From contig JBBTUX010000008.1 in the NCBI GenBank assembly GCA_038063555.1, forward strand, positions 1 through 60,357: a DNA stretch of 60,357 bases, given 5' to 3'. This DNA comes from Patescibacteria group bacterium (lineage in GTDB: Bacteria; Patescibacteriota; Minisyncoccia; Phycocordibacterales; JAKFXT01). The notes below the pieces were generated by a model, which made no database searches, was not told the origin of the DNA, and saw nothing but the letters and a program-made list of their open reading frames with translations. The translations under genes were made by a program, and so were the position numbers. Of the stretch, positions 3,292 to 58,822 are shown piece by piece (positions within the stretch are counted from its first letter, which is position 1; every line of letters starts with the position of its first letter).

Positions 3292-3360
3292 TTAAAACTC
3301 CAAACTCCCCTTTTTAGCAAATGATTTAAATCCGTTCAATTCTAGAGATTTTAGATACAT
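3292..3360 (-). pseudogene. ghost 5' fragment of smc (MYLKSLELNGFKSFAKKG then SLEF stop) left upstream of the cassette
   Basis: Own translation from ATG at 3360. The first 18 codons equal the smc N-terminus and the fragment retains the upstream leader module. Confidence 0.7.
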
Positions 3361-3371
3361 CCCATTAGAAA
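3309..3371. repeat. direct repeat copy 2 of the smc 5' end
   Basis: 60/63 identical to 2543-2605. Confidence 0.9.
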
Positions 3372-3490
3372 GCTTCTCGCGCAATTCTAAGCACGTTTTG
3401 CTTTTGGTTAACTATGTTCCGACTATTTTTCATATTGTTTTATATAACTATATAACTATTCGTCGTAGCAGTTTCTAACGGGATAAATAT
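3361..3490 (-). repeat. promoter/leader module copy A with inverted termini CCCATTAGAAAG ... TTTCTAACGGGA
   Basis: Shares both termini, GCTACGACG, a TATATA box and CTTTCTAATGGGATG (including the start codon) with 49883-50023. Confidence 0.6.
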
Positions 3491-7815: not shown

Positions 7816-10800
7816 ATGGCAAAATTTACTCATCTCCACACTCATTCTCATTACTCCTTGCTTTCAGCTATTCCCAAAATTCCTGAATTGGTGGGAATTG
7901 CCAAAGCGGAAAAAATGGAAGCTCTTGCCTTAACTGATAATGGAAATTTATATGGAGCTATTGAGTTCTATAAAGAATGCAAAAAAGCAAAAATAAAACC
8001 AATTATAGGCGTAGATTTTTATATTTCTCCGAGAAAAAGAAGCGACAAGGAACACAATTTGGACGATAAATACAGTCGTATAATACTTTTAGCTAAAAAT
8101 TTCAAAGGTTATCAAAATCTCATAAAACTCGTCACTCTTTCAAACTTGGAAGGTTTTTTTTATAAACCAAGAATTGATAAGGAACTTTTAGAAAAATATA
8201 AAAATGGGTTAATAGCCATACTTCCTGCTTTTAATAACGAGGTTTCCAAATCTCTCAATAATTCCAATGAAAAGCAGGCGGAAGAAAAACTGCTTTGGTA
8301 CAAAAATACCTACGAGGAAAACCTGTATTTAGAAATCACCAAACACAATGACATAGAAAATCATGCCAAATTAATAGAAAACATAAAATCTTTGGGAGAA
8401 AAATGTTCTGTAGAACTGGTGGCGTCGCATGGTGTTTATTATTTAAAACCCGAAGAAAAAAGAGTTCTGCACGTGGTTGAATCCATTCAAAACAATACCC
8501 ATGAGCCATACGAAGATAGTGGTGGAGATTTTTCTTTTTTGGATGAAAAAACGATTCTCAAAAATTTTGAAAATGAGCCAAGAGCGCTTGAAAATAATCA
8601 AAAAATCGTTGATGAGTGCAATTTGGAATTGGAACTTGGCAAATGGACTTTCCCGAAACTTAAAATTGAAAGTGGTAAAACGCCTGACGAAGAATTGCGG
8701 GACATAACCTACAAAGGACTGGGTTTTAGAAATTTGGAAAAAACAAAAGAAGTAATAGATCGCATTGAATACGAACTTGGTATCATAAAAATGAAAGGAT
8801 TTGCTCCATATTTTTTAGTGGTAGCTGACCTTTTAAAATATGCTCACAATCATGAAGTACTTAGCAATATTCGTGGTTCTGTTTCAGGTTCTCTTGTCAC
8901 CTATTTATCCGGTATTACCAATATTAATCCCATTGAATACGAAATTCCTTTTGAAAGATTCTTAAACCCGGAACGTCCTGGTGCGCCAGATATTGATATG
9001 GATTTTGCTGATAATAGGCGTGACGAAATGATTGAATACGCCAAAAATAAATACGGGTCCACACACGTAGCGCAGATTGGAACCTTCGGAACAATGATGG
9101 CCCGCGGAGCTGTGCGAGATGTTTCTCGCGCCTTGGGTTACCCCTACGGGGTCGGCGACAGAATTGCCAAATTAATTCCTTTTGGCTCACAAGGATTTCC
9201 TATGACAATTGATCACGCTCTTAAAATAACGCCAGAACTTGAAGAATTGTATAAAAAAGAGTCAGATATTAAAGAAATAATTGATATGTCAAAAAGAATT
9301 GAAGGCAATGCGAGGCATATTTCAATTCATGCCGCTGGGGTCGTAATGTCGCCGACAAACCTTGAAGAAACCGTTCCGATTCAACTTGACCCAAAAGAAA
9401 GTGGAAGAATTATTACTCAATACGACATGTATTCGGTTGAAGAAGTTGGTCTTTTGAAATTTGATTTTCTGGGACTTGGCAATTTGGCCATAATTGCTGA
9501 CACTTTCAAATTAATTGAGCGTTTTCACGGAATAAAACTTTCTATGGATAAAGTTCCAATCGATGACAAGAAAACTTTCGAAATGCTGGCTCGTGGCGAA
9601 ACATCTGACACCTTTCAACTTAATGGAAGCGGTATGACAAGATTTTTAATGGATCTAAAACCAACGACAATTCATGATATTAACGCCATGGTGGCGCTTT
9701 ACAGGCCTGGTCCCATGCAATTTATTCCTGATTACATAGCCAGAAAACACGATCCGAAAAAAATACGCTATTTAGATCCTGCACTGGAACCAATATTGCA
9801 AAAAACTTATGGAATTCTGGTCTATCAAGACGATCTTTTAATAATGGTTAACCGTTTAGCTGGATATTCCTGGGGCGAAGTAGATAAATTCCGTAAAGCG
9901 GTCGGTAAAAAAATTCCAGCGGAAATGGAGGCGCAAAGAGAGAATTTTATTAAAGGAGTGGTAAAAAATTCTAAGTGGAGCGAGAAAAAAGCGACTGAAC
10001 TTTGGACTTGGATAGAACCATTTGCCGCCTATGGATTCAACAAAGCTCACTCGGTTTCTTATGGTTTTATCGCTTATCAAACCGCTTATTTAAAAGCCAA
10101 TTTTCCCGGTGAATATATGACTGCGGTATTGACTGAAGAATTGGGCGAGGTGGAAAAAGTGGCTTCCAGTATAAAAGAATGTAAAAGAATGGGTATATCG
10201 GTTCTTCCCCCCAATATCAATGAGAGTTTCAAGGATTTTACTTTAATTAAAGATGGAAACCTGCCCGCCGCCCGCCTGCAAGAAAGCGGGCAGGCGTCGT
10301 TTAACTCCACGGCGCAGGCAGGAAAGGACACAATTCGTTTTGGGCTTGGCAGTATTAAGAATTTTGGTGAAGGTATAGCTCAAATAATCATTGACGAAAG
10401 AAAAAAGAATGGACGTTTTTCCTCTTTAGCAAACTTTTTAAAACGAATCAAAAATAGAAACTTAAATAAAAAATCTCTGGAAGCGTTGGTTTACGCCGGC
10501 GCCTTGGATGATTTTGCTGAACGCGGAATAATGCTTGGCAATCTTGAAGCCCTCCTTGAATTTAATAAAGAAAATCAAAAAGATGATAATCAAACCTCTC
10601 TTTTCGGCGCACTTTCGCAAAACGGCGATGAATTAACTCTAAAAACAATGCCCTCAATGGCAAAAGACGAGAAATTAAAATGGGAAAAAGAATTGCTCGG
10701 ACTTTATTTATCGGGACACCCACTTGATAAATACAAAGAAAAACTGGAGGGACGCGCCATGACCATAGAAAAAATAACCACGCAAATGAAAGAAGGTATG

Positions 10801-11040
10801 ATTGCGGTAGTTTCCGGGATTGTAGAAGAATCCAAAATTCTTTTAACCAAAGGCGGAGACAGAATGTGTTTTGTAAAAATGACAGATTTTACAGGTTCCC
10901 TTGAAGTGGTTATATTTCCTAGAATTTATAATGAGATTAAAGATTTGTTGATTTTAGAAAATTGCATCGCCATAAAAGGCAAAATTTCCCATAGAAATGG
11001 AGCCGTTTCTCTCATAGCCGAAGCGGTGAAAAAACTTTAG
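7816..11040 (+). CDS. dnaE: DNA polymerase III alpha subunit
   Basis: 1074 aa with PHP domain HLHTHSHYSLL and polymerase core (..PDIDMDF.., YQDD-like ILVYQDDLL). TATAAT lies only 4 nt before the ATG. Confidence 0.9.
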   Translation: MAKFTHLHTHSHYSLLSAIPKIPELVGIAKAEKMEALALTDNGNLYGAIEFYKECKKAKIKPIIGVDFYISPRKRSDKEHNLDDKYSRIILLAKNFKGYQNLIKLVTLSNLEGFFYKPRIDKELLEKYKNGLIAILPAFNNEVSKSLNNSNEKQAEEKLLWYKNTYEENLYLEITKHNDIENHAKLIENIKSLGEKCSVELVASHGVYYLKPEEKRVLHVVESIQNNTHEPYEDSGGDFSFLDEKTILKNFENEPRALENNQKIVDECNLELELGKWTFPKLKIESGKTPDEELRDITYKGLGFRNLEKTKEVIDRIEYELGIIKMKGFAPYFLVVADLLKYAHNHEVLSNIRGSVSGSLVTYLSGITNINPIEYEIPFERFLNPERPGAPDIDMDFADNRRDEMIEYAKNKYGSTHVAQIGTFGTMMARGAVRDVSRALGYPYGVGDRIAKLIPFGSQGFPMTIDHALKITPELEELYKKESDIKEIIDMSKRIEGNARHISIHAAGVVMSPTNLEETVPIQLDPKESGRIITQYDMYSVEEVGLLKFDFLGLGNLAIIADTFKLIERFHGIKLSMDKVPIDDKKTFEMLARGETSDTFQLNGSGMTRFLMDLKPTTIHDINAMVALYRPGPMQFIPDYIARKHDPKKIRYLDPALEPILQKTYGILVYQDDLLIMVNRLAGYSWGEVDKFRKAVGKKIPAEMEAQRENFIKGVVKNSKWSEKKATELWTWIEPFAAYGFNKAHSVSYGFIAYQTAYLKANFPGEYMTAVLTEELGEVEKVASSIKECKRMGISVLPPNINESFKDFTLIKDGNLPAARLQESGQASFNSTAQAGKDTIRFGLGSIKNFGEGIAQIIIDERKKNGRFSSLANFLKRIKNRNLNKKSLEALVYAGALDDFAERGIMLGNLEALLEFNKENQKDDNQTSLFGALSQNGDELTLKTMPSMAKDEKLKWEKELLGLYLSGHPLDKYKEKLEGRAMTIEKITTQMKEGMIAVVSGIVEESKILLTKGGDRMCFVKMTDFTGSLEVVIFPRIYNEIKDLLILENCIAIKGKISHRNGAVSLIAEAVKKL
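10271..10294 (+). repeat. 24-nt GC-rich hairpin mini-element (CCCGCCTGC-N7-CGGGCAGG) inside dnaE, within a 65-nt GC-rich in-frame patch (10261-10325)
   Basis: The same 9+8 nt arms are found at 49992-50015 (opposite strand). Encodes part of LPAARLQESGQASFNSTAQAGK. Confidence 0.7.
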
Positions 11041-33382: not shown

Positions 33383-33571
33383 ATCCCGTTAGAAAATCGC
33401 ATGGAGCAATTATAGAAAGTTGCTTCCATTTTCCGAGCCGCCTCCCAGGCTTGAACTGGGGACCTACTCATTACAAGTGAGTTGCTCTACCAACTGAGCT
33501 AAGGCGGCTCGGAAAACACAAGTTTTTTAATTCAAATGTACAATCGGGTTTTAATTTATTTTCTAACGGGA
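33383..33571. repeat. segment bounded by 14-bp perfect inverted repeats TCCCGTTAGAAAAT / ATTTTCTAACGGGA that contains the intact tRNA-Thr
   Basis: Arms at 33383-33396 and 33558-33571. The same terminal motif occurs at 3472-3484 and 50016-50023. Confidence 0.7.
33436..33508 (-). tRNA. tRNA-Thr (anticodon UGU), no encoded CCA
   Basis: Manual cloverleaf: GCCGCCT TA GCTC AGTTGGTA GAGC A ACTCA CTTGTAA TGAGT AGGTC CCCAG TTCAAGC CTGGG AGGCGGC T (73 nt). Confidence 0.9.
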
Positions 33572-49882: not shown

Positions 49883-50023
49883 CCCATTAGAAAGTCGCTC
49901 GCAAAATCACGAACGAACTATGCTTTAAATTAGCTTTATTTAGACCTTTTAACATATACTTCTATATATAATTTTCCGTCGTAGCGACTTCCCTGCCCGT
50001 CATGTCGCAGGCGGGTAACGGGA
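49883..50023 (-). repeat. promoter/leader module copy B (as 3361-3490) carrying a 24-nt GC hairpin insertion
   Basis: CTTTCTAATGGGATG, GCTACGACGG, TATATA and TCCCGTTA are shared with copy A. Confidence 0.6.
49992..50015 (-). repeat. 24-nt GC-rich hairpin mini-element (minus strand CCCGCCTGC-gacatga-CGGGCAGG)
   Basis: Deleting it restores TTAGAA-18 nt-TATATA as seen in copy A. The arms are identical to 10271-10294. Confidence 0.7.
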
Positions 50024-58661: not shown

Positions 58662-58822
58662 AACAAAACTCCTTATGTTGTGCCAGCGGACCACCGGAAT
58701 GGTAGTCATAGCGAGGAATGGCCTCTATTGTCTTTTTTGTTAAGCCACTTTTCGCTATGACCACCCGCCTGCGCAGGCAGACTCGCAAGTCATATCAAAG
58801 ACCTAATCTATAGTAAAACAAA

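Follow-up and report, generated by a model that had tools for sequence, protein, structure and literature searches.

Why does a gene as essential as dnaE, which encodes DNA polymerase III alpha, carry a GC-rich palindrome in its reading frame, and why does the same hairpin recur some 40 kb away between two other genes? The question is raised by a stretch of 60,357 nucleotides from a Patescibacteria group bacterium (contig JBBTUX010000008.1 of GenBank assembly GCA_038063555.1, positions 1 to 60,357; in the following "the window"), which represents contig C8 of a 672-kb genome with 20 contigs and 38% GC (G000 in our genome set). An original prediction had described a 24-nt hairpin mini-element at both places. 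Our comparative analysis indicates that the dnaE patch and the second hairpin probably belong to one family of GC-rich palindromes of 18-63 nt, composed of CCTGCC/CCCGCC words, which have been copied into new sites.

The composite palindrome in dnaE and its family

The features of the dnaE locus are as follows.

7816-11040, plus strand: dnaE (DNA polymerase III alpha), the host of the insertion; an intact open reading frame (ORF) of 1074 amino acids (aa) according to the ORF list and its translation, matching the Pol III alpha structures 2HPI and 2HNH
10260-10322, plus strand: GC-rich composite palindrome of 63 nt, the real inserted unit according to the DNA alignment with same-genus orthologues; 21 codons encoding (N)LPAARLQESGQASFNSTAQAG
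10271-10294, plus strand: 24-nt hairpin CCCGCCTGC-AAGAAAG-CGGGCAGG, the inner module of the composite, located by pattern match
10260-10270, plus strand: left outer arm CCTGCCCGCCG, which pairs with 10310-10322 or alternatively, and perfectly, with 10286-10294
10310-10322, plus strand: right outer arm CGGCGCAGGCAGG, seen in sequence and fold

The arm pattern CCCGCCTGC-N7-CGGGCAGG has exactly two matches in the window, both without mismatch and both where they had been predicted, namely at 10271-10294 on the plus strand and at 49992-50015 on the minus strand; none is expected by chance, and none was found in 100 dinucleotide-preserving shuffles of the window. The partial copies reported to flank the dnaE hairpin are present as well (CCTGCCCGC at 10260-10268 and GCGCAGGCAGG at 10312-10322). 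The GC-rich patch encodes NLPAARLQESGQASFNSTAQAG directly ahead of IRFGL, and the peptide predicted from the insert is LPAARLQESGQASFNSTAQAGK. The location and the reading frame of the patch were thus recognized correctly, but its extent has to be revised: instead of 65 nt and about 22 extra residues, the alignment delimits a unit of 63 nt and 21 codons bounded by CCTGCC…GGCAGG, of which the 24-nt hairpin is only the inner part. The unit may represent a merged or nested copy that combines a 39-nt outer palindrome with the 24-nt inner hairpin. Its DNA fold of -18.2 kcal/mol stands out from shuffled sequences (z = -2.5), whereas the 24-nt hairpins, whose imperfect stem includes a single C·A mismatch and a single G·T pair, are no more stable than shuffles when folded alone (z = -1.4 and -1.0).

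A DnaE segment of 163 aa was searched in 41 related genomes and recovered in 40 of them, and most of the alignments break exactly at the patch. The stretch from DFTLIK to IRFGL comprises 27 residues here and 7-10 residues in four genomes of the same genus; the closest relative, G004, which is 84% identical over the segment, has NMEKNEEKNS at this place. Neither the four same-genus genomes nor more distant relatives have the insert. In 95 DnaE orthologues from relatives and metagenomes the loop mostly has 6-10 residues, compared with 29 here by the same delimitation. In the alignment with Pol III alpha of Thermus aquaticus (2HPI), residues 1-53 of the segment correspond to 832-884 and residues 80-161 to 886-967, and because of this gap 26 DnaE residues replace the single residue 885 at a tight turn. 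The insertion is located in a surface loop, the beta-hairpin turn before IRFGL, just as the alignment proposed by the original prediction was meant to reveal. Judged by the Escherichia coli sequence (…DDGEIVYGIGAIKGVGEG…), the turn is situated shortly before the helix-hairpin-helix motif. A metagenome scan for near-identical dnaE alleles with an empty site returned nothing above 66% identity. Insertions appear to land in, or to be tolerated by, this loop repeatedly: an unrelated Patescibacterium harbors a 20-mer of the palindrome family in the same DnaE loop, read as DLPAGRQE. A further Patescibacterium (L118; metagenome contig Ga0268283_1000767) exhibits a 70-residue insert in this loop with repeated …VIPAKAGIQ…-type peptides, which, judged by their sequence, resemble translated copies of another GC-rich hairpin repeat.

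When GC-rich hairpins and arm words were counted over the whole genome, a family emerged whose members read CCTG[C/T]C[T/C]G…C[A/G]G[A/G]CAGG, or more narrowly CCTGCC[T/C]GC…GC[A/G]GGCAGG. It comprises about 25 copies, namely 13 that fit the family pattern, eight with CCCGCCTGC…CGGGCAGG arms and a few variants, with the dnaE unit included in both counts. The two arms occur 12 and 14 times genome-wide, and the full hairpin with a loop of 0-30 nt eight times. Single 8-mers are only about 3-fold enriched in an order-3 Markov word count, hence the signal resides in the paired arms and not in single words. About 15 copies are non-coding. Nine are located inside long ORFs, whose identities were confirmed with Pfam:

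Mur ligase: 18 nt, encoding RLPAQAG
PEBP protein: 18 nt, encoding DLPAQAG
YqeY: 18 nt, encoding GLPAQAG
TrmD: 21 nt, encoding CLPAGRA
SHOCT-domain protein: 21 nt, encoding GLSAGQTG
PNPase: 33 nt, encoding GLPAATGTAQAG
AlaRS: 33 nt, encoding DLSASRTDGQAG
LigA: 39 nt, encoding HLPAPQSKASRQAG
DnaE: 63 nt, encoding (N)LPAARLQESGQASFNSTAQAG

The length of the insert is divisible by three in all nine intragenic copies versus six of the 12 non-coding copies that were measured, which argues that the inserts are translated and neither removed nor bypassed. All nine share one phase, in which the codon is split after the second base and the reading is L-P/S-A…G. Orthologues of eight of the genes were recovered from the four same-genus genomes with a chimeric query (one to four per gene), and every one of them lacks exactly the residues that are encoded by the palindrome. 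At the DNA level, the insertions are discrete units with sharp borders (C|CTG…CAGG|) and no detectable target-site duplication, and G or A is the last base of the left flank. Their distribution is patchy, as they are absent from the orthologous sites of close relatives and present at unrelated sites in many genomes, and some of them are nested in other repeats or merged with each other. The search for further in-frame copies that the original prediction had recommended was accordingly successful, with nine copies here and further ones in relatives; neither an ancestral loop shared by unrelated DnaE orthologues nor a family of just two copies, the two outcomes it had named as contrary to its proposal, was encountered. 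Copies on contig C19 had been suspected to lie in rRNA, but one is intergenic, one is located in the gene of the SHOCT-domain protein and one upstream of that gene.

The second hairpin and its leader elements

The second hairpin copy of the window is part of a larger repeat, whose components and paralogues are listed below.

49992-50015, minus strand: second 24-nt hairpin copy, with GACATGA as its loop; it sits within the left arm of an inverted-repeat element, at TTA|GAA
49882-50023, minus strand: 142-nt inverted-repeat leader element TCCCGTTA[hairpin]GAAGTCGCT … AGCGACTTTCTAATGGGA, followed by TG
3360-3483, minus strand: hairpin-less paralogue of this element, the "leader copy A" of the original prediction
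C5:5213-5329, C12:15919-16036, C16:5759-5885 and C18:48096-48221: further inverted-repeat units

The hairpin follows the stop codon of the gene for the transketolase C-terminal subunit at a distance of 12 nt, and the 3' end of the 142-nt element forms, together with the next TG, an ATG upstream of and in frame with a membrane-protein gene. The orthologous junction between the two genes in G004 consists of a 24-nt spacer only, so that the whole 142-nt unit is an insertion. The genome contains about 22 such inverted-repeat units of 100-190 nt with the form (T)TG-TCCCGTTAGAA … TTCTAAYGGGA-TG, the 3' arm of which usually abuts a start codon. Their extended arms covary between copies (TCGC/GCGA, CCAC/GTGG, TTGC/GCAA), and one inverted-repeat pair (33384-33571 of the window) brackets a tRNA at 33436-33508. 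Removal of the 24 nt at 49992-50015 restores colinearity with the paralogue at 3360-3483 (TCCCGTTA|GAAG…) and yields the arrangement TTAGAA-18-TATATA, exactly as had been foreseen; the alignment of the subfamily documents a clean indel at TTA|GAA. The additional claim that the hairpin interrupts a -35 box could not be upheld. TTAGAA is part of the terminal inverted repeat, it agrees with TTGACA at three of six positions, and sigma-70-type scans detected no promoter using it in either element, with the reservation that the consensus TTGACA-16/18-TATAAT may not be that of a phylum whose promoters are uncharacterized.

The most serious alternative starts from this locus. The hairpin might belong to the leader and tRNA-tail elements, either as an optional stem in a structured RNA or as a site bound by a protein, and be conserved by selection, the dnaE copy being secondary or fortuitous. 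We regard this as unlikely, even though a number of observations speak for it. The hairpin occupies TTA|GAA in the same orientation in four (possibly five) elements of this genome and in two of G002, a member of the same genus. The C·A mismatch and the G·U pair are kept in every copy of the arm variant, including the forms of 39-45 nt in relatives. In the predicted fold of the 142-nt element, the two arms close and the hairpin forms a side branch of a three-way junction (z = -3.0). Several copies in relatives are moreover located just 3' of tRNA genes, within T-arm-like repeats.

Other observations speak against it. The same arms are found inside long ORFs of relatives, in several frames, and in dnaE of the present genome. 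A search of the window and four other loci against Rfam retrieved only tRNAs, hence there is no known RNA family for these elements, and the 24-nt hairpin alone is, as reported above, not unusually stable. The host element is itself an insertion that G004 lacks. Finally, the hairpin-bearing elements are not each other's nearest kin: those on C3, C8, C16 and C18 have identical arms (17/17) and are mutually 58-69% identical outside the hairpin, which is no closer than their relationship to hairpin-less elements; the identity across the aligned subfamily ranges from 56 to 77%, and the hairpin-bearing element on C16, for example, shares 77% with the hairpin-less one on C17. The common placement at TTA|GAA is compatible both with insertion directed by site or structure and with an RNA or DNA module under selection. 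If the palindromes are mobile, the copy at 49992-50015 may be a module that was inserted at TTA|GAA into a mobile leader element of the inverted-repeat type, or that is carried there.

Two further observations concern the surroundings of such hairpins. In three relatives (L081 in G026, L088 in G020, L079 in G009), CCCGCCTGC…CGGGCAGG hairpins lie 28-140 nt 3' of tRNA genes; those of L081 and L088 are positioned inside partial duplicates of the tRNA T-arm (GGATTT|hairpin|GAACC and GACTC|hairpin|GAACC), and where the hairpin is found in T-arm-like repeats of relatives, it is again often followed by GAA. The leader elements at C14:378-514 and C14:19223-19350 harbor a different GC hairpin, CCTGTCTGTGCG…CGCAGACAGG, three bases earlier, at TCCCG|TTAGAA.

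Distribution across genomes and the remaining alternatives

The family pattern is present in 15 of the 41 relatives and the CCCGCCTGC…CGGGCAGG arm variant in nine of them, whereas the reversed, non-complemented control of either pattern had no match anywhere. Copies of the arm variant in relatives often measure 39-45 nt and are located inside long ORFs in several frames. Within the genus, G002 has eight family copies, all at other sites than here, and G003 and G004 have none. The three exact 18-mers of G002 all lie in long ORFs and are read GLPAQAG or DLPAQAG, while two longer forms are in other frames. The distribution of the exact 18-20-mer CCTGCCTGC-N0-2-GCAGGCAGG is far wider: of 401 Patescibacteria genomes sampled across the phylum, 93 contain it, the maximum being 25 copies, whereas the reversed control matched in none of the 401; outside the phylum, species-representative genomes were scanned, and it was retrieved from Bacteroidota (including isolates), Omnitrophota, Planctomycetota, Gammaproteobacteria, Acidobacteriota and others. 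A metagenome-assembled genome of Gammaproteobacteria (L240; OZ251218.1) contains two ACCTGCCTGCTGCAGGCAGGT copies 474 nt apart within the ORF of an IS630-like transposase, which means that palindromes land in the genes of other mobile elements too, and do so outside the phylum.

Another alternative is that the dnaE patch arose on the spot, in a hypervariable loop in which slippage, duplication or template switching took place, and that it resembles the other hairpins in composition only. The range of the loop from 6 to 70 residues among the 95 orthologues would suit such an origin, as would the internal near-repeats CCTGCCCGCCG, CCCGCCTGC, GCGGGCAGG and GCAGGCAGG of the patch. It is nevertheless improbable: the same 17 specified bases are present at eight sites of the genome where none is expected, eight other genes have clean insertions of the family in the same phase, and the loop with the insert has 60% GC amid flanks of 34% GC.

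A slightly smaller chance still is given to a function of the inserts at the protein level, i.e. an LPA…QAG motif that is selected in many proteins. In its favor is the single frame shared by all nine in-ORF copies, the three exact 18-mers of G002 and one exact 18-mer in G035. The host genes are functionally unrelated, however, and close relatives manage without the inserts; other frames are used in relatives (PACHDCGAGR, ACLPRMRRHGRQA), many copies are non-coding, and what is conserved is the palindrome in the DNA and not the peptide. An artefact of assembly or sequencing, which a draft genome assembled from a metagenome might suggest, is virtually precluded by the in-frame inserts with lengths divisible by three and by the recurrence of the same elements in dozens of assemblies made independently of each other, as well as in genomes of isolates from other phyla.

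Known systems, a possible mobilizer and significance

The original prediction had compared the hairpins with Rickettsia palindromic elements (RPEs), ten Rickettsia-specific families of about 150 bp, each encoding a conserved peptide (PMC10969869). The likeness in behavior is borne out, as palindromic repeats are found both in intergenic DNA and in unrelated housekeeping ORFs, where they keep the frame and add a peptide segment. Judged by size, the units of 18-63 nt fall outside the RPE range (about 100-150 bp, families RPE-1 to RPE-10), and they differ in their phylum, apparently in their sequence, and in an exact core that recurs across phyla.

In their behavior, the palindromes appear to correspond most closely to the GC clusters of yeast mitochondria, for example GC42 (PMC4478555); these palindromes, GC-rich in AT-rich surroundings, spread and become merged and shuffled. 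Both are GC-rich and sporadic in an AT-rich host (38% GC here), gained or lost between close relatives, and merged into composites, as exemplified by the nesting in dnaE and in the inverted-repeat element; for neither is an enzyme known. The comparison is one of behavior and not of literal membership, because the yeast clusters are organellar and the present host is a bacterium. Unlike the present elements, GC clusters have been reported to show putative target-site duplications; they typically measure 30-60 nt, and no exact 18-20-mers of theirs are known to be shared across phyla.

Repetitive extragenic palindromic (REP) sequences, REPINs and intragenic REPs are associated with RAYT/TIRYT tyrosine transposases, and some REPs lie inside replication or repair genes (PMC3733652, PMC3116915). 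The present elements resemble these GC-rich imperfect palindromes of 20-40 nt in that some are found within replication or repair genes, and in that the genome has Y1/HUH homologues. They differ by a large intragenic fraction and by the lack of a GTAG or CGTC tag and of cognate copies next to Y1 genes; CGTC is seen only behind the inner hairpin of dnaE, and (G)TAG only 3' of two copies. Nor do they correspond to miniature inverted-repeat transposable elements: the whole unit is palindromic, no duplication is seen at eight empty sites, and no parent was found among 120 loci. Another comparable group are the small dispersed repeats SDR1-8 of Nostocaceae, hairpin-forming repeats of 21-27 nt that reportedly behave as mobile DNA. 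They are said to insert into genes and into each other with no known transposase, and to be restricted to cyanobacteria with a sequence other than the one found here. A literature search returned no published description of the present sequences, of their encoded peptides or of such palindromes in the candidate phyla radiation (CPR).

How the palindromes might have been copied can be outlined as follows. The palindrome would fold into a hairpin as a single strand and be pasted bluntly into DNA by an enzyme acting in trans; the best guess is a hairpin-recognizing HUH/Y1 (RAYT-like) transposase or a structure-specific nuclease. Of the intragenic copies, selection would then retain only those with a length divisible by three in tolerant surface loops. 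The retained frame would provide the mild peptide Leu-Pro-Ala…Gln-Ala-Gly, so that the copies are presumably translated as extra loops.

Candidates for such an enzyme are encoded in the genome:

C18:48646-49329, C6:33921-34604, C6:30905-31510, C16:8259-8963 and C16:20143-20817: five RAYT/TIRYT-like Y1 (HUH) transposase genes

These five genes of about 225 aa match PF01797 (Y1_Tnp); G002 has four, and G001, G003 and G004 have none. The best NCBIfam match is the REP-associated tyrosine transposase NF047646, with 38-40 bits versus a cut-off of 80. All five genes have their own perfect palindrome of the CAAGG-N5-CCTTG type in front, and two have one behind as well, an arrangement that is reminiscent of "TIRtrons" and distinct from that of a REPtron with the present family. 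A Y1 match was obtained for 64 of 93 palindrome-bearing genomes versus 126 of 308 others (odds ratio 3.2, p = 3e-6, ignoring phylogeny and genome size). The Y1/RAYT genes were not accepted as the mobilizer and are retained as a candidate only: they are associated with the palindromes, but their own flanking palindromes differ and many palindrome-bearing genomes lack them. In a separate observation, the three same-genus genomes with no or few GC palindromes are also devoid of Y1 genes. The region C18:49444-49495, upstream of the Y1 gene C18:48646-49329, contains a tandem pair of mini-hairpins of about 40 nt, TCCCGTTAGAGGTTTGTCC(A/G)CAAACTCTCTAA…, which share their termini with the inverted-repeat leader elements.

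Several points weigh against the copying of one palindrome family into new sites. Neither a target-site duplication (at eight empty-site comparisons) nor a conserved target sequence was found at the insertion sites compared. None of the five Y1 genes is flanked by CCTGCC palindromes, 29 palindrome-bearing genomes, one of them with 25 copies, have no Y1 match, and the association given above takes no account of phylogeny and genome size. Among the 120 loci with the 18-20-mer, no gene is bracketed in the manner of an autonomous parent element; pairs of copies bracket ssb, lie inside the ORF of an IS630-like transposase, or lie inside other repeats. The recent mobility of the palindromes is inferred from sequence comparison, and the translation of the inserts from their length and frame only. 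The uniform reading frame could reflect a bias of insertion rather than selection.

A more far-reaching proposal, which we put forward tentatively and consider possible rather than likely, is that CCTGCC/CCCGCC palindromes are a pan-bacterial class of ultra-small mobile DNA of 18-45 nt. They would move as self-folded hairpins with structure-directed targeting and without target duplication, by means of unrecognized machinery, and would in Patescibacteria continually supply core proteins such as DnaE, LigA, PNPase and AlaRS with new surface loops. The targets would be the arms and loops of hairpin repeats (TTA|GAA, T-loop-like parts of tRNA tails) and the permissive loops of essential genes.

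If the palindromes really move, their size of 18-63 nt places them among the smallest mobile DNA units known, and they would be a routine source of new loops in essential proteins of replication, repair and translation in ultra-small bacteria. They inflate the apparent divergence of proteins and create GC-rich "islands" in annotations, and they may confuse gene calling and alignment in CPR genomes. The exact conservation of the sequence across phyla points to a specific enzyme that recognizes a short hairpin, and such an enzyme would be of interest as a tool for DNA insertion. A minor feature of the window completes the inventory:

58764-58782, plus strand: CCCGCCTGCGCAGGCAGAC, either a partial copy or a related short palindrome; it is situated in non-coding DNA directly behind the diversity-generating retroelement (DGR)

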